A stretch of 22,513 bases of DNA from Promethearchaeota archaeon (GCA_016926735.1 JAFGOA010000040.1:1-22513), one strand, 5' to 3'. Positions 1,007 to 18,820 are shown, numbered from the stretch's first letter. The notes: generated by a model not told the origin, from the letters alone. Numbers and translations are program-made.

Positions 1007-1588
1007 ATGAGTAGTGAAAAAGAAGGATTAAGAAAGCTAATTATGTTGATTTCAGAATTGAGAGCCAAGGACGAGGAGAGATATGAGGCTCATGTTGATT
1101 TTATGAATCAAACAATTAAAATGATTAGCGCAATAGAATCTCAAATGAATAAACATTGGAAAACGGTTTTAGAATCATTGAAGGAATTAAATGAGAATAT
1201 AAATACTAATTTAGATTCATTACTTACAGGAATTAATCCAAAGGGATTAAGAGAAACATCAAAATCATTAAGAGAAATAATGGATACAATGAATAAAAGC
1301 GTTCAATCTATGAATCTTGAAAAAGTTTTAAGTGAGTTAAAAGAACTAAAGGGAGCTAATATACAATATGTTCCTATGGCGGCTCAAGAGGTTGCTATTG
1401 GACAGCAGCCTGAGCAGATTTCTACTGGCATTGCACCTGTGGGATTAAAAGCTCCAGGGAAAACCGCCTCAACTGCTACCAATCAAGATGCTCAATGGGT
1501 TGATCCTAATGAGGCTGCTGAAAAGAAAAGAAAAAAAGAAGAAGAGGAGCCTCATTTATTGAAACCAAGTGACTTTTTTGGTTCTTAA
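1007..1588 (+). CDS. Hypothetical protein: helical/coiled-coil N-terminus, low-complexity linker, short C-terminal motif
   Basis: 193-aa ORF with heptad-like helical sequence over about the first 115 aa, an A/P/Q/T-rich linker, and a KKRKKEEEEPHLLKPSDFFGS tail. A T-run follows the stop. Confidence 0.75.
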   Translation: MSSEKEGLRKLIMLISELRAKDEERYEAHVDFMNQTIKMISAIESQMNKHWKTVLESLKELNENINTNLDSLLTGINPKGLRETSKSLREIMDTMNKSVQSMNLEKVLSELKELKGANIQYVPMAAQEVAIGQQPEQISTGIAPVGLKAPGKTASTATNQDAQWVDPNEAAEKKRKKEEEEPHLLKPSDFFGS

Positions 1589-1705
1589 ACATTTTTTTAC
1601 TTAATACTAAATATTTTTTTAAAATTTCTACTAATTATAATTAGATTAGAATAACCAAGAAAAAGTCAAATCCATTTTTAAATCTAATTAGATTTTATCA
1701 ATTAC

Positions 1706-1941
1706 AGCAAAAGAAAACACCTTCCTTTCGGGGGCTGATGAATTTTGCTTTTGTAAATCTTTAACCTCTCATCATTTAAAAACAAAAAAAATATAAGAAT
1801 AATTAATGCAACTCATTCGACAAGTTCAATTTAAATCCTTTACATCTATTTTTTGATAGAGGATGTCTGAGCCGCCCATTAGTGTTAGAAATTAATTGAT
1901 GTTTAACCTAAAAATCTCACTCCTTTAGGTGAGTAGTTCAA
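1706..1941 (+). mobile_element. Non-autonomous IS200/IS605-family mini-element (internally deleted IS605/IS1341-type; left end + tnpB 3' remnant + right end)
   Basis: TTAC at 1702-1705 immediately precedes the left-end hairpin AGCAAAAGAAAACACCTTCCTTTCGGGGGCTGATGAATTTTGCT. The right end AAATCTCACTCCTTTAGGTGAGTAGTTCAA ends in TCAA, as in the IS608 architecture (TTAC/TCAA cleavage sites, hairpin with a T-rich loop). No target duplication is seen. Joining 1705 to 1942 restores GCC ATG TAA in frame for the neighbouring minus-strand gene. Confidence 0.8.
1775..1899 (+). pseudogene. tnpB: Eroded 3' tip of a tnpB gene
   Basis: Three fragments in shifting frames: FKNKKNIRIINA (1775-1810), IRQVQFKSFTSIF (1815-1853) and DRGCLSRPLVLEIN* (1855-1899). 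They resemble, from memory, the IS1341-type TnpB C-terminus (F....G..INADxNGAxNIxRK...RG.L..P..). The DxNGAxN segment is deleted and there is a frameshift in a T-run. Confidence 0.6.
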
Positions 1942-2795
1942 ATGGCGCCCATAATATCTGAATAAATATTTAACTTAATATTATAAAATTCATCAATTAT
2001 AGCTAAAAGAAAATCAAAATATTCCTTCTTGTATTTTCTTGTAAAATTCTTTTCAAGAGTATCTTTAATTTGCATTTTGTTAATACTTTCTTTTTTTTGA
2101 GAAAATGTATCAATTATAAAATTTACTTCTTGATGAATCAATTTCATTCTTTTTTTTAAAAGAGGAATTGCTTTATCTTTTTGTTCATAAAATTCAGCAA
2201 TTATGCTATTTATAACTTTTAGATTTTTAGTAAAATTTTTAATCCCTTTAGTTTTCATATCTTGAATAAGAACGGTATTTTCCATTAATTTATTGAGTTC
2301 AAAGGTTTTATCTTTAATAACTTTCACATTATAAGTAAAAAGATCTTTCATAATTGTTTCAAGGAATTTTAATAACATACTCTTATCATTATCATCCAAT
2401 TCTTCACTTATAATTATAACATTCTTTTTTAATAAAATAGCTTTAAAAATATATTCATAAATAATCGTTGGGAAAAAACTTTTTATTAATTTAATTTGTG
2501 TATCGTTTAATGACGATTCTTTTTGAGGATCATAATCAAGACCATCTATTAATTTAATATCGTCTAATAAAATATCTACTTTTTGATATCCTCTAATATG
2601 AAAATTTTTATCTAAATATATTTGAAAATGATGCTCACAGCAATATCCTGGAGGTATACTCACTGTTGTTAGAGTTTTACTAACTTTAATTGAATTTAAA
2701 GGTATAAAGAGATCTTTATTCTTTTTACATTCAGGACATATAATATTAACCTTTATTTTAACATCAGAATCCTCATCTAATTCTATATTTTTCAT
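1938..2795 (-). CDS. Hypothetical protein with N-terminal zinc ribbon (CPEC...CCEHHF)
   Basis: 285-aa ORF containing ICPECK and CCEHHFQIYLDKNFHIRGYQKVD. An AGGTG SD-like motif lies upstream. The stop codon lies inside the mini-IS right end. Confidence 0.8.
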   Translation of the reverse strand: MKNIELDEDSDVKIKVNIICPECKKNKDLFIPLNSIKVSKTLTTVSIPPGYCCEHHFQIYLDKNFHIRGYQKVDILLDDIKLIDGLDYDPQKESSLNDTQIKLIKSFFPTIIYEYIFKAILLKKNVIIISEELDDNDKSMLLKFLETIMKDLFTYNVKVIKDKTFELNKLMENTVLIQDMKTKGIKNFTKNLKVINSIIAEFYEQKDKAIPLLKKRMKLIHQEVNFIIDTFSQKKESINKMQIKDTLEKNFTRKYKKEYFDFLLAIIDEFYNIKLNIYSDIMGAI

Positions 2796-3027: not shown

Positions 3028-4377
3028 TTAATATATGAATAATTCCATAAACGCTTCTAACCTAGTTCGAGTTTGTTCAATATTCTCCCCAATTTTATTA
3101 AAAGACATAACAGTAGTTGGGATTTCAAGATTTCTTTTAATTTTATTCCTTAATAACGTATAACAATTTGCGATACTATGGCATCCAAAAACTTGATTGA
3201 ATATCATACCATCTATTTTAAGCTCTTTAGCAGAATTCATATAATTATCAGTTAAAGCATTTTGATCATATCCTATTCCATCTGTAGTTATATTCATTAA
3301 AAATTTAGCATATTCTTCGATTGGGTCTGAATTATTAGAAGAAGGTATCTCCTCTAAAAACTTGAATATTAACCAATCAGCATAAATAGTTCTTGCACCT
3401 AATTTATATAAAATTTCATGTGTTTCAGGTTCCCACCCTCCAAACACAGGCGTTATTAATAATTTAGGCATTTTAGATACATCCATTCCTATCCCTTTCC
3501 GCTTTCTTTCATTTATTTCATTTTGTAATTGTGTAATATTTTCAAGATAACTTTGAGCATCTGAATTAAGATCTTGAAAACTAAGTCCTAAAAGAACTAA
3601 AATTTCTGCGAAAGTGGCAGGATTACAAGGATAAAAATCATCTATACAAGAATTTCTAAGAATAGAGTTATAAATTTTCTTTATTTGATTACCAAGTTGG
3701 AATTGTTTTCTTAAACTATTATCAGTTATTAGATTTCCAGTTAGCTCTTCTAATTCTGATATTGCATTTTTAATATTTTCTTCTAATAATTCTACACTAT
3801 TCCCCAAATTTCTTGGAGGGATATCAATCCAAATCTGTTTAGAATTAGGAATGATATATTTTAATGATTCAGAATATTTATTCCAAGCACTACATCGAAT
3901 TGAATAGTTTAAATTTGCATCTATATTTTTACCTTTAGATAAAAACATACCTGTAAGATTAGTGATACCATAGCAAAAATCATTTGACACACCATTTTTT
4001 ATTCCAAGATCATATAATTCATTATATTTTTCATTAATTGTATGTATTACATCATCAAGTACATTATCTAAGATATTTAAAACATCAAATTGCTTTGCAA
4101 AACCTAAAAGTTTTGAAGTCACATTCCATCCGAATAAACTCGATGCTGATCCTAATGCTGATAAATAATTATGAATTTTATACTGTTCCATTCGAATAGG
4201 AAAGACAGGTATAGCAGAAGCAGCAAATACCAAATCTGAAAATGGTAAAGCAATTCCTACTAACTTTTTTTTGTCAGTAAATTTCTTTTTTTTTAAATAA
4301 TTTCTTCCTGCAAGAAAATTGTAGGAAAGACGTAATACAGATTTAAAAGATACAATATCATCAGTAAATAAACTCAT
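3028..4377 (-). CDS. 2-hydroxyacyl-CoA dehydratase family subunit (HgdA/B, FldB/C, BcrB/C-like)
   Basis: Candidate Fe-S cysteines in DFCYG, IRCSAW and FGCHS. Family-typical IDGMIFNQVFGC and C-terminal EQTRTRLEAFMEL motifs. It starts 1 nt after the partner subunit. Confidence 0.85.
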   Translation of the reverse strand: MSLFTDDIVSFKSVLRLSYNFLAGRNYLKKKKFTDKKKLVGIALPFSDLVFAASAIPVFPIRMEQYKIHNYLSALGSASSLFGWNVTSKLLGFAKQFDVLNILDNVLDDVIHTINEKYNELYDLGIKNGVSNDFCYGITNLTGMFLSKGKNIDANLNYSIRCSAWNKYSESLKYIIPNSKQIWIDIPPRNLGNSVELLEENIKNAISELEELTGNLITDNSLRKQFQLGNQIKKIYNSILRNSCIDDFYPCNPATFAEILVLLGLSFQDLNSDAQSYLENITQLQNEINERKRKGIGMDVSKMPKLLITPVFGGWEPETHEILYKLGARTIYADWLIFKFLEEIPSSNNSDPIEEYAKFLMNITTDGIGYDQNALTDNYMNSAKELKIDGMIFNQVFGCHSIANCYTLLRNKIKRNLEIPTTVMSFNKIGENIEQTRTRLEAFMELFIY

Positions 4378-4378
4378 A

Positions 4379-5515
4379 TTATATCATCTCTAAAAATGCT
4401 TCTATCCTTGTCGATAGTTGCCCTCTATTCGAACGAGAATAGTCTCTTTCTAAATTTAAAACATTTATTCCTCTATCTTTTAGCTGATTTTTCAAATTAG
4501 TTTGAAATAAACTAAAATGATCGCAAAATTTTATAATATGATTAATTATTGCCGGTTTCTTATTAACATCCTTATTAAAACGGTTTACCCACCTTTCTAA
4601 AAAATTAAGTTTATTCTCAAGATATTCAGGAATACAATGATCTCCATATAGGTTATTTTCAAACCTTTTTGTAAGAATATTTAATGGATTTTCTATTTTT
4701 CTCAACGTCTCTTTTTCAAAAATTTGGGAATAGTAATTATAACCAATCCAAGAGTCAAAAAAAACAATATTACCTCCACTCTCTTCTATAAGATCTATTA
4801 AATAATCTCCTATGAAAATAGAGCATCCTGTTAATATTATATTTTTATAATTATTATTTTTTGTAAAATCTTTTTCTTCATATCTATCAATGAACCTTTC
4901 CAATTCAGGTTGAATATCAGGACCAAAAAGAATAGATTTTTGAATAAGTTCTAACTTTTGTGATCCTAATATATCCAAATTTCCAATTTTACTCAAAACT
5001 TTTTTAAAGTTATTATATTTTAGAATACTTTCTCTTAATTTTTCATCTGAGATTTTTGCTTTAGTAATAGATTCTATTTTTTTTTTTAGATTATCTAATT
5101 CGATTCTATAATATTTAAAAGAATTTTGATTCCTTGCATATGCAACATAAAAATCCAAACGAGGTAGTTTAGAGGTTTCAGAAATAATTTCTGATACACA
5201 AATATCTGTAACGCAATGATTTGAAAGTAAGATATAATCTACATTCTGTAAAAATTCAAACATATTGGGTATTAAATGATATAATCCTAGACAGCTCTGA
5301 GCAAAACTACATGTTGAAGGAGGCAAGAAATCATGACTTGAATTCATCAAATCATCATTTCCAGCAAAAATCATTCTTAAAGGAACAATATCAGCTGCAT
5401 CAAAAAGTTCTTCTGGAATATTATCGTGAGCTAGAAATGCAATAATTTTTTTTCCTTCTTTTTTCTTAATTTCTAAGAATTTATTATATTCGGATAAAAG
5501 TTCTGATGAATTCAT
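4379..5515 (-). CDS. 2-hydroxyacyl-CoA dehydratase family subunit
   Basis: Motifs IPEELFDAADIVPLR, STCSFAQSC, SNHC, KFCD and C-terminal GQLSTRIEAFLEMI. Confidence 0.88.
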   Translation of the reverse strand: MNSSELLSEYNKFLEIKKKEGKKIIAFLAHDNIPEELFDAADIVPLRMIFAGNDDLMNSSHDFLPPSTCSFAQSCLGLYHLIPNMFEFLQNVDYILLSNHCVTDICVSEIISETSKLPRLDFYVAYARNQNSFKYYRIELDNLKKKIESITKAKISDEKLRESILKYNNFKKVLSKIGNLDILGSQKLELIQKSILFGPDIQPELERFIDRYEEKDFTKNNNYKNIILTGCSIFIGDYLIDLIEESGGNIVFFDSWIGYNYYSQIFEKETLRKIENPLNILTKRFENNLYGDHCIPEYLENKLNFLERWVNRFNKDVNKKPAIINHIIKFCDHFSLFQTNLKNQLKDRGINVLNLERDYSRSNRGQLSTRIEAFLEMI

Positions 5516-5615
5516 ATATCAGTATAAAATAAATAAAGATAGTACATACTAAAAAGATTAAATAATTGATAAAATTTATTGATATAAAAAATTAGAGAAA
5601 ATAGGTATGTAGGAA

Positions 5616-6386
5616 TTATTCTTTATCCATTGAGATCAAAGCAGCTCCAATAGCCCCGGTTAATTGGGGATATTCTGGAATAACAATTTCAAATCCCAAT
5701 TCGACTTCTAAATATTTTTTTACTGCTATATTTTTAGCAACCCCACCACAAAAAACCAATAATGGTTCAACATTCATACGTTTAGACATTCCGGCTACTC
5801 TTTTAGCGATAGATTGATGAATACCTGCTGCAATATCTTCTTTTGGGACTTTTTGAGCAAATAGACTTATTATTTCACTTTCAGCAAAGACAGTACACGT
5901 TGAGGAAATTGATGCAATATTTTTAGATTTAAGGGCTAATGCACCCATATCCTCTATTGGCACATTTAATGCATCTGACATTACTTCTAGAAACCTACCC
6001 GTTCCAGCAGCACATTTATCATTCATTTGAAAATCAATAACTTTACCTGACTTTGCAGAGATTATAATTACTTTAGAATCTTGCCCACCGATATCTATAA
6101 CTGATCTAGCATTAGGAAAAAAATATTGAACGCCCTTCCCATGAGCAGTGATTTCTGTTATACGATTATCTTTAAAATCAATAGTATTACGCCCATATCC
6201 TGTGCTTGTTACATAAACATCTGATTTTTTTAAATTATTCTGATCTAATATTTCTGTAAATAAATTATAAGCTACTTTTTTAAAATCATAAGTGGATCTA
6301 GCTACTCTCCAATCAATTAACTTTTTATCTTTATCTAATAAGATAATTTTAGTTACTAAAGATCCTATATCAATTCCTATAAACAT
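5616..6386 (-). CDS. hgdC: ATP-dependent activator of 2-hydroxyacyl-CoA dehydratase (HgdC/BadF-BadG/BcrA-BcrD ASKHA ATPase)
   Basis: Motifs GIDIGS, TGYGR, EITAH, IDIGGQDSK, MNDKCAAGTGRFLE, STCTVFAESE, GGVAKN and GAIGAAL. Confidence 0.93.
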   Translation of the reverse strand: MFIGIDIGSLVTKIILLDKDKKLIDWRVARSTYDFKKVAYNLFTEILDQNNLKKSDVYVTSTGYGRNTIDFKDNRITEITAHGKGVQYFFPNARSVIDIGGQDSKVIIISAKSGKVIDFQMNDKCAAGTGRFLEVMSDALNVPIEDMGALALKSKNIASISSTCTVFAESEIISLFAQKVPKEDIAAGIHQSIAKRVAGMSKRMNVEPLLVFCGGVAKNIAVKKYLEVELGFEIVIPEYPQLTGAIGAALISMDKE

Positions 6387-16624: not shown

Positions 16625-18820
16625 TTATTTTTTAATCATTTCCTTTAATAAATTACGGCATTCTTCTACAGAGAAAATATTATATTTAGCATTAGTTCTT
16701 GAAAATCCTATTTTTATCGTAAAAGAATTACTAATCGAATTAATTAATTCAAACATATCTTCATCCGTTATATCATCCCCTACAACAAATATGAACTCGG
16801 GGTCATAATCCTTAAGTAAATAATTAGAAATTGCAATACCTTTATTTATTAAAGCATTCTTTATTTCAACAACTTTATTTCCATCAAGTATAGTCAAGTC
16901 TTCTCCATGTGTAAAATTCTTCAGAAAGTCAACTAATTCTCTAGTTCTTATATCCGCAAGCTCTGATTCCACTTTTCTATAATGCCATACTAAACAAAAT
17001 TCTTTTTCTTCTATAAAAGACCCAGGTGTTCTATTGACGTATTTTTCTAAAATTGGTCTTATATCTTCTTTCCAATTATTTTTTAAATAATCTATTGTAT
17101 TCCATTCATCCATTAAATGTTTTATCCATAATCCATGCTCAGCAATTAATATAATATCAAGATTTTTAAACCATTCTGAAAGTGTTTCTTTATTTCTCCC
17201 ACTAACAACAGCTACTCTATTTTTTTTATCTTCAATAAGAGTTTTTAATATTTCTATAATCTCATCATCAGGTTTAGCTTCTTTAGGATCATTATAGAAT
17301 TGTACTAAGGTTCCATCATAATCAAGAATTATTAATCTTTTTTTTGCTTGATTATACTTTAAATATAATTCTTCTTTTTTTGTGTGATTTAAATATCTTA
17401 TTGTTTTATCTTGAGGTTTTTCTTTTACTAAGAGAAGATTTTCAAGTATATCTTCTGCCCAATTTAAAACATCATAATTTTTAATTCTTTTTTGCATTAC
17501 ACTCATTCGGTCTATTTTTTCATCTCTAGACATTGTTAAAGCGCTATTAATTGCTTCAATCATTTGGTTTTTATTGTTTGTATTAACAATAATGCTTTCA
17601 AATAACTGTTTTGCAGCACCAGCCGTTTCACTTAGTATAGGTATCCCCTCTCTATTTAATTTGGAAGCAATATATTCTTTTACAATTAAATTCATTCCAT
17701 CTCTTATTGGTGTAATTAGAATAATATCTGAGATCATATATAATGCTACAAGTTCTTCTATGTTTAAAGGTTTATGTCGATAGAGAATAGGATTCCATCC
17801 AATTTTACTAAATTTTCCATTGATTTTACCTACAAGTTCATCAATTTCCTTTTTTAAATTTTGATATTCCTCTACATCAGAACGAGAGGGGGCAATAACA
17901 AACATCAAAATAACTTTTTCTCTCCAATTTGGATAATTATCTAAAAATAATTCAAAGGCTTCCAATCGTAATTTTATCCCTTTGGTATAATCCATTCGAT
18001 CAATTGAAAGTATCACTCTATAGTGACCAATTTCTTTACTTATGTCTTTTGCCTTATTTTTTACACTTGAAGTATTAGCTATTTTCTGAAATTTGTCATA
18101 ATCTATTCCCATTGGAAAAGTATCCACCTTAATATTTCTTCCATGTAAATTTATTTGATTCATCGTAAAATCAATTGATAATAATCTGCGAACGCTACTC
18201 AAAAAATGCCTTTCGTAATCATAAGTATGAAAACCAATTAAGTCTGAACCTAAGAGTCCTTCTAAGATTTCTTCTCTCCAAGGTAGCAATCGAAAAATTT
18301 CATAAGAGGGAAAGGGAATATGTAAGAAATATCCAATGGTAGCATCAGGTATCCCATTTCTTATAAGATTAGGTAAAAGCATAAGATGATAATCTTGAAT
18401 CCATAAAATATCATCAGATTTCACAATTTCTAATATAACTCTGAAAAATTTATTATTTATTATTTTATAAAAATTCCATAATTCATCTTCAAATGTAGTA
18501 AATTCAATAAAATAATGAAAAAGAGGCCAAATAGTTTTGTTACAAAAACCCTCATAAAATTTTTCTTTTTCTTCTTGAGTAAAAAAGATAGGATAACAAT
18601 TATATTCTTCTTTTAGATGTTCTTTTATTTCATTTTTATTTGCTTCAACTTTTTCTTCGACTATTCCAGGCCATCCAATCCATATACCATTATGTGATTT
18701 ATGAAATGATTCTAAACCTGTGGTTAAGCCTCCCAAACTCCGAGTATACGTAATTTTATTATTTTCTTTTTTAACTGAAACGGGTAATCTATTTGAGATA
18801 ATTACTAATCTTCTTTCCAT
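16625..18820 (-). CDS. Bifunctional trehalose-6-phosphate synthase/phosphatase (OtsA-OtsB fusion, TPSP)
   Basis: GT20 motifs SNRLP, WIGWPG, WPLFHY, QDYHL, FLHIPFP, DRMDYTKG and DGMNLIVKEY. HAD motifs LDYDGTL, VSGR, NKG and GDDITDEDMF. Confidence 0.95.
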   Translation of the reverse strand: MERRLVIISNRLPVSVKKENNKITYTRSLGGLTTGLESFHKSHNGIWIGWPGIVEEKVEANKNEIKEHLKEEYNCYPIFFTQEEKEKFYEGFCNKTIWPLFHYFIEFTTFEDELWNFYKIINNKFFRVILEIVKSDDILWIQDYHLMLLPNLIRNGIPDATIGYFLHIPFPSYEIFRLLPWREEILEGLLGSDLIGFHTYDYERHFLSSVRRLLSIDFTMNQINLHGRNIKVDTFPMGIDYDKFQKIANTSSVKNKAKDISKEIGHYRVILSIDRMDYTKGIKLRLEAFELFLDNYPNWREKVILMFVIAPSRSDVEEYQNLKKEIDELVGKINGKFSKIGWNPILYRHKPLNIEELVALYMISDIILITPIRDGMNLIVKEYIASKLNREGIPILSETAGAAKQLFESIIVNTNNKNQMIEAINSALTMSRDEKIDRMSVMQKRIKNYDVLNWAEDILENLLLVKEKPQDKTIRYLNHTKKEELYLKYNQAKKRLIILDYDGTLVQFYNDPKEAKPDDEIIEILKTLIEDKKNRVAVVSGRNKETLSEWFKNLDIILIAEHGLWIKHLMDEWNTIDYLKNNWKEDIRPILEKYVNRTPGSFIEEKEFCLVWHYRKVESELADIRTRELVDFLKNFTHGEDLTILDGNKVVEIKNALINKGIAISNYLLKDYDPEFIFVVGDDITDEDMFELINSISNSFTIKIGFSRTNAKYNIFSVEECRNLLKEMIKK

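Follow-up and report, generated by a model that had tools for sequence, protein, structure and literature searches.

An IS200/IS605-type mini-element silently replaces the stop codon of a zinc-ribbon protein gene in a Promethearchaeota genome

A gene for a zinc-ribbon protein in a Promethearchaeota archaeon terminates in a stop codon that lies within the end of a transposable element. The locus raises the questions of what the insertion did to the gene, and of whether such elements seek out stop codons or are tolerated there. The window (the whole 22,513-nt stretch of DNA analysed) is contig C33 of its own genome, G000, and was compared with three other genomes of the genus (G001, G002 and G003) and with metagenome contig Ga0307445_10078390 (L056). 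Two convergent genes define the locus:

1938-2795, minus strand: host gene, a 285-codon ORF for a 285-aa CpXC-like zinc-ribbon protein of a Promethearchaeota family, function unassigned, ending ...SDIMGAI
1007-1588, plus strand: convergent neighbour gene of 193 aa, whose synteny in G001-G003 and L056 anchors the orthology of the locus

A Pfam search gave no match for the host protein, whose closest Atlas clusters are Promethearchaeota hypothetical or "CpXC-like" proteins, which places the genome among the Asgard archaea. Orthologues in the genus share 97% (G003), 77% (G002) and 71% (G001) protein identity with it, the allele on L056 is 95% identical, and a database orthologue (P0003) is 73% identical. 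Elsewhere, at 2-886 and 3028-6386, the window encodes a dockerin-domain protein with repeated "GVTWSN...IHVVW" units and, adjoining it, a 2-hydroxyacyl-CoA dehydratase cluster of two HGD-D subunits and a BcrAD/BadFG activator ATPase. A fused trehalose-6-phosphate synthase/phosphatase is found at 16625-18820.

On its own strand the host gene ends GGC GCC ATT TGA, where TGA pairs with 1940-1938 and the final T of ATT with A1941. The original prediction that a transposon end supplies this stop is confirmed: TGA and the T before it are the reverse complement of TCAA at 1938-1941, the last four bases of the element. The site and the element are delimited as follows:

1694-1698, plus strand: target and transposon-adjacent motif (TAM) TTTAT, from the empty sites in G003 and L056; A-TAA-A on the gene strand
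1699-1941, plus strand: 243-bp element, internally deleted and protein-less, seen as an exact 243-column gap against two empty alleles

Three alleles of the locus are free of the element (G003, L056 and G002), and the first two were used for the gap alignment. Aligned with them, the window shows a single 243-nt gap at 1699-1941, between ...TTTAT and ATGGCGCCC..., with no duplicated bases. Both empty sites read TTTAT followed directly by AT(G/T)GC..., and shifting both boundaries by one base in either direction is incompatible with them. Among 18 copies with unrelated upstream flanks, left-end conservation begins at about 1693-1699 with CAATTAC(A/T)AGCAAAAG..., and TTTAT stands directly 5' of 16 of the 18 (variants TCTAT and GTTAT). 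The right boundary at 1941, correctly placed from the start at TCAA, is supported by the two empty sites and by 82 related right ends, all of which finish ...TAGTTCAA. The ends, CAATTAC... and ...TAGTTCAA, carry no terminal inverted repeats, and the element inserted without target-site duplication.

These boundaries differ from those first proposed, which put the left edge at 1705/1706 and described a 236-bp element of IS608 type, inserted 3' of TTAC (1702-1705) into a gene that ended ...MGAM TAA, with the last residue changed from Met to Ile. TTAC does occur at 1702-1705, the join of 1705 to 1942 does give ATG TAA in frame, and the right end TCAA is the same as that of IS608. However, the segment 1699-1705 (CAATTAC) is conserved in nearly all other copies despite their unrelated upstream flanks, the two empty alleles lack 1699-1941 rather than 1706-1941, and every orthologue ends MGAI. 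The empty allele expected under a TTAC target would read ...ATCAATTAC followed by ATGGCG. The exact reconstruction of an empty site had been taken as independent support for the boundaries, and such support is weak in AT-rich DNA: when the left join was placed arbitrarily at 131 positions from 1600 to 1730, 16 of the joins (12%) gave an immediate stop and 41 gave one within three codons. An IS608-type insertion at TTAC was rejected and retains next to no probability; TTAC lies inside the element, and both the left ends and the empty sites place the boundary between 1698 and 1699.

On the gene strand, the join of 1698 to 1942 yields GGC GCC ATA TAA A. The empty allele of L056, whose right flank is identical to that of the window, reads GGC GCC ATA TAA A, that of G003 reads GGA GCA ATA TAA A, and that of G002 reads GGT GCT ATA TAG. 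The ancestral TAA is thus the complement of 1697-1695, inside the target TTTAT, and the ATG TAA obtained arithmetically from the 1705-1942 join is not what real empty alleles carry, which is ATA TAA. Orthologues had been expected to end MGAM before a TAA; instead, ...YSDIMGAI ends every orthologous protein examined (G000, G001, G002, G003, the L056 contig, P0001, P0003 and P0004). Since all orthologues end MGAI and the empty site carries ATA, the insertion was silent: ATA became ATT, both of which encode Ile, and TAA became TGA. The supposed Met-to-Ile change falls away, the pre-insertion sequence GCC ATA TAA already specifying Ile, and an insertion that had been judged almost neutral proves to be fully silent. 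One 97%-identical variant of the host protein (P0002, ENA, 246 aa) no longer follows the family sequence beyond about residue 231 (…TFSKLTRIVFDKHQYFL); its divergent tail could be another insertion or a contig end.

Searching genome G000 with window positions 1690-1960 as query recovered partial copies of the element on a dozen contigs and a full 1.35-kb relative at C151:17388-18735 (minus). The latter encodes a 396-aa protein that matches PF01385 OrfB_IS605 (2.3e-18) and PF07282 Cas12f1-like TNB zinc ribbon (8.1e-23) and is therefore a TnpB. Judged from its sequence, the window element derives by internal deletion from an IS200/IS605 element of the TnpB-only, IS1341 type; its ends, hairpins, target use and TnpB-encoding full relative all agree with the IS200/IS605-type mini-element that had been proposed. 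The right-end pattern CTTTNGG-N(2-7)-GTAGTTCAA has 7, 7, 64 and 5 matches in G000, G001, G002 and G003, respectively, and a reversed-pattern control has none in the same four genomes. Nearly all non-redundant right ends (79 of 82) fit an 8-bp stem, a TTTN loop and an 8-bp stem followed by TAGTTCAA. The stem covaries between subfamilies at pairs 2, 3, 5 and 6 (pair 5: CG 26, GC 19, TA 22; pair 3: AT 64, CG 8). The left-end hairpin is likewise conserved among copies. Sister subfamilies have left ends after TTTAC and include 190-, 112- and 47-nt forms.

Several further members of this superfamily were observed. G002 shows an expansion to 64 sites (e.g., L139, L142, L117 and L127), many of them at contig ends, and its 47-nt micro-elements have the left end fused to the right end via a shared hairpin. 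In G000, C4:3683-3747 holds a solo left end of about 62 nt that is perfectly palindromic (CAATTACAGCAAAA...TTTTGCTGTAATTG) and has T(C/T)TAT as its flank on either strand. In G003, a 442-codon frame (L049/L068; G003:C401, right end at about 9795) enters a right end 38 nt before its TAA, and its last 13 codons are apparently element-derived.

The Y1 transposase domain, PF01797, was found neither in G000 (a 99%-complete, fragmented assembly) nor in G001. G002 and G003 do carry the domain, within tnpA-tnpB units that resemble the window family in their left-end hairpin and ATGAAT tail. A G002 unit, for example, has the left end TTTAC followed by CCTTCTTCCACCAGAAAGCCACGTCC-TTTA-GGGCGTGG-ATGAATGG, the same architecture as that of the window element. 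The TnpA-bearing loci of G002 and G003 have related ends only, without the ends of the window's subfamily. The window copy was presumably mobilised by a Y1 TnpA acting in trans. PF01797 occurs in the two genomes with an empty site (G002 and G003) and was not found in the two occupied ones (G000 and G001), a distribution that is anecdotal at n = 4.

Within the element, both ends and two fragments of tnpB can be recognised:

1718-1737, plus strand: left-end subterminal hairpin CACCTTCC-TTTC-GGGGGCTG, then ATGAAT, from the left-end comparison
1806-1856, plus strand: tnpB start remnant MQLIRQVQFKS..., ATG at 1806, matching the C151 TnpB N-terminus MQLVRQVQFTS
1855-1899, plus strand: tnpB 3'-end remnant (DRGCLSRPLVLEIN and stop), the last 14 codons, matching the C-terminal peptides of C151, C160 and C173
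1916-1933, plus strand: right-end subterminal hairpin CTCACTCC-TTTA-GGTGAG, from the right-end comparison
1934-1941, plus strand: invariant tail TAGTTCAA, from the right ends; its final five bases, TTCAA, are the transposon-encoded motif (TEM)

The start remnant stops at a TGA after 16 codons, at a deletion joint that is shared by no other copy in the four genomes. The 3'-end remnant belongs to what is, in full copies, the coding region of the guide-RNA scaffold; the window copy aligns with the last 87 nt of these copies and has kept only those 87 nt of the scaffold region. Its left part is 90-93% and its right part 92-96% identical to copies in G003. Compared with the family consensus CACCCTCC...GGGGGGTG, the left hairpin contains a C:C mismatch and folds weakly (z = 0.16), and the 3' arm of the right hairpin is 2 nt shorter than the consensus GGGGTGAG. 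Single-strand folds of the window copy's own ends were no better than shuffles because the hairpins of this copy are damaged. With both hairpins slightly damaged, the copy is probably a decaying fossil with poor mobility; it may excise poorly, and the state of its hairpins suggests that mobility has been lost.

How could a transposon exchange one stop codon for another? The target TTTAT and the tip TTCAA are identical except at positions 3 and 5. A full element, or an already shortened derivative, would have inserted as single-stranded DNA directly 3' of the plus-strand TTTAT. Read on the opposite strand, this target is A-TAA-A, in which the first A completed the final codon of the convergent gene (ATA, Ile), TAA was its stop and the last A followed. 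The right tip, TTCAA, brings T-TGA-A to the gene strand in the same register, converting ATA TAA A to ATT TGA A with the protein unchanged and the base after the stop still A. Almost all of tnpB has been lost from the window copy through internal deletion. Given the similarity of TAM and TEM, the stop-for-stop replacement would be a geometric consequence. The suggestion that motif and tip are complementary to stop codons in register stands, with the amendment that the pair is TTTAT/TTCAA; TTTAC, with the reverse complement G-TAA-A, is used in a sister subfamily. We conclude, with a probability of about 0.9, that a TnpB-only IS200/IS605 element silently replaced the stop at TTTAT and persisted through motif geometry and purifying selection, not through targeting of stop codons.

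The closest known parallel is ISGst2 of Geobacillus stearothermophilus, which encodes TnpB2 (Meers et al., 2023; PMC10055086). In the sections of that paper drawn on here, TTTAT is the target and the experimentally verified TAM of TnpB2, and its similarity to the right-end motif TTCAC is stated; DNA guides adjoining the hairpins recognise each of the two motifs by base pairing. The same sections describe a right-end motif TTCAN, which differs from the TAM at positions 3 and 5, as well as subterminal hairpins, scarless insertion and excision, and PATE-like protein-less derivatives. The reverse complement of the ISGst2 TEM, GTGAA, also holds a TGA in register with the TAA of the reverse-complemented TAM. 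ISGst2 differs in being bacterial, in having TTCAC where the window element has TTCAA, and in owing its mobility to a TnpA of its own genome; the G000 assembly yielded no TnpA. These sections describe no stop-codon replacement for ISGst2, and no explicit prior description of IS605 tips supplying stop codons was found in the literature searched.

Among archaea, the solo-tnpB elements of Sulfolobus islandicus (PMC10640517) are also tnpB-only and of IS1341 type; TTTAT is inferred at their left boundary, and their omegaRNA is encoded at the tnpB 3' end and the right end. They are full-length, active elements of Crenarchaeota, and the likeness is drawn by motif and architecture. IS608 of Helicobacter pylori resembles the window element in inserting 3' of a short motif without duplication, in right-end cleavage after TCAA and in having imperfect hairpins near both ends, but its target is TTAC, which occurs by coincidence inside the window element, and it carries its own tnpA. 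PATEs and other protein-less IS200/IS605 mini-elements (Haloquadratum, Geobacillus) have similarly kept both ends and lost their genes; the window copy, unlike these, is a singleton deletion product and not an amplified PATE family.

Whether stop codons are preferred was addressed by a census of 82 right ends in the four genomes, a right end being scored when the TGA of its tip is the exact stop of an open frame of 100 or more codons on the opposite strand. Genes were represented by a stop-to-stop ORF proxy of at least 100 codons, and the background was taken from G000 only. Six right ends are on stop codons and the other 76 lie elsewhere. The six are:

G000 C33 (the window): open frame of 289 codons
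G001 C18 (orthologue of the window gene): open frame of 298 codons
G002 C30: open frame of 401 codons
G002 C65: open frame of 181 codons
G001 C131: open frame of 125 codons
G002 C92: open frame of 102 codons

The G000 orthologues of the G002 C65 and G001 C131 genes (L126 and L087) have the same end position, and that of the G002 C30 gene (L086) ends one residue later; these three are therefore real gene ends. For the G002 C92 gene (L130), the orthologue alignment stops nine residues short of the end. Only two long frames enter a right end in another frame. The G000 background comprises 67,924 TTTAY sites, of which 534 (0.79%) coincide with the TAA that ends an opposite ORF of 100 codons or more; when it is limited to TTTAY sites outside long ORFs, 3.3% are on stop codons. 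The binomial tail for 6 of 82 is P = 5e-5 against all TTTAY sites, but P = 0.055 against the non-disruptive sites (an approximately 2-fold excess), and 0.09 with TTAY as the motif.

The host gene now also has a terminator-like signal downstream:

1910-1933, minus strand: terminator-like signal formed by the right-end hairpin and a following ATTTTT, 5 nt past the new stop

One such site is found at 1910-1933 against 0.2 expected; it is the one result considered from a scan for bacterial-type signals, whose promoter part has no meaning for an archaeon. Its T5 run is unique to the window copy and arises from a single G-to-A difference from the G003 copies.

A second occupied allele is found in G001. 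There the orthologous gene (71% identical) ends GCT ATT TGA, and the opposite strand continues ...CTTTAGGGTGTGGTAGTTCAA followed by ATAGCACCC. The 21-nt right end CTTTAGGGTGTGGTAGTTCAA, at L018:1478-1500 (G001:C18), lies just left of the gene end at L018:1501, supplies this gene's TGA and is joined at the identical nucleotide. It is a stub: the 5' hairpin arm is missing, an unrelated repeat adjoins it, and no left end was found at this locus in G001. Among the 82 junctions, G000 and G001 are the only pair with orthologous right flanks.

These observations bear on how the element came to be at this site and why it stays. The original prediction regarded such sites as a possible safe harbour, and in its active form this would mean preferential targeting or retention at the TAA stops of opposite genes, with the right end as a portable stop-plus-terminator module. 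The excess over all TTTAY sites (6 of 82 against 0.8%, P = 5e-5), the one nucleotide occupied in both G000 and G001 (the sole orthologous shared junction among the 82) and the resemblance of the gene-strand right-end hairpin plus T5 to a terminator would fit such a role. Against it, the excess over non-disruptive sites is only about 2-fold (P = 0.055-0.09), 76 of the 82 copies are away from stop codons, the T5 run is absent from other copies, and the chance of one cross-genome coincidence is about 0.02-0.08 over all pairs. The last figure is a rough estimate, obtained either from all cross-genome pairs and some 16,000 tolerated sites or from the stop-codon pairs and the 534 stop-codon sites. 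We consider an active safe harbour improbable, and a true safe-harbour preference is not borne out by the census. The counts support a reading in which insertions within genes are purged, stop-codon sites are harmless and the residual excess is at most 2-fold, so that these sites are "tolerated" and not "targeted". A stop-codon site is among the few harmless places near a gene, and persistence there is explained by motif geometry and purifying selection. The borderline 2-fold excess and the occupation of the same nucleotide in G001 nevertheless leave room for some real site preference.

The shared nucleotide could also reflect shared descent, that is, one insertion common to G000 and G001 that TnpA later removed precisely from the lineages of G002 and G003. 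The identical junction, the scarless excision of IS200/IS605 elements (described in the portions of PMC10055086 used here) and the presence of TnpA in exactly the two empty-site genomes, with none in the two occupied ones, are consistent with this history. However, the window copy is 90-96% identical to the G003 copies while the coding flank is only 77% identical between G000 and G001, the window's subfamily is essentially absent from G001, and the 21-mer of the G001 stub recurs exactly in G002, in right ends of another subfamily. Two gains are as parsimonious as two losses. A common ancestral insertion appears unlikely, and two independent insertions at this nucleotide, which we judge probable, are favoured over one ancestral insertion with two excisions. 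The cross-genome coincidence is suggestive of a hot spot without being compelling. In its strongest form, this would make the gene end a recurrent insertion hot spot for two subfamilies in two species, with the right end kept by selection as a stop-and-terminator module, which we regard as doubtful, at about the same level as active safe harbour. If true, it would imply that IS605-type tips have been repeatedly exapted as gene 3' ends in Asgard archaea. Silent replacement at TTTAT, tolerated and not targeted, remains the preferred reading.

The junction also has consequences for guide RNA, which concern the sequence immediately beyond the right end:

1942-1961, plus strand: right flank, the predicted guide portion of any omegaRNA from the right end, by geometry

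The original prediction held that such a guide would be antisense to the 3' end of the host mRNA, and the geometry agrees for a putative guide at 1942-1961: this segment is antisense to the last 6-7 codons of the host gene and matches perfectly the L056 empty allele after TTTAT. A guide next to the TAM is the standard geometry, and a homing model for TnpB is given in the sections of PMC10055086 drawn on here. Transcription of a guide RNA from the window's right end is presumed. A scan of the whole window against Rfam gave no match, and an alignment of the right-end region of six close copies showed no compensatory changes.

This locus provides a base-exact case, verified by empty sites, in which an IS200/IS605 element silently replaces the stop codon of a gene. 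The swap reveals no new mechanism and is an expected by-product of the target motif of this transposon family. For annotators, it indicates that a transposon can provide the 3' end of a gene in these genomes, and that mini-element boundaries guessed by analogy with IS608 can be several bases off. For work on TnpB, the locus offers an Asgard TnpB family with a natural TAM (TTTAT), a predicted guide and an empty allele that matches it, with TTTAT-ATGGCGCCCATAATATC as a candidate target of the C151 TnpB with its omegaRNA.
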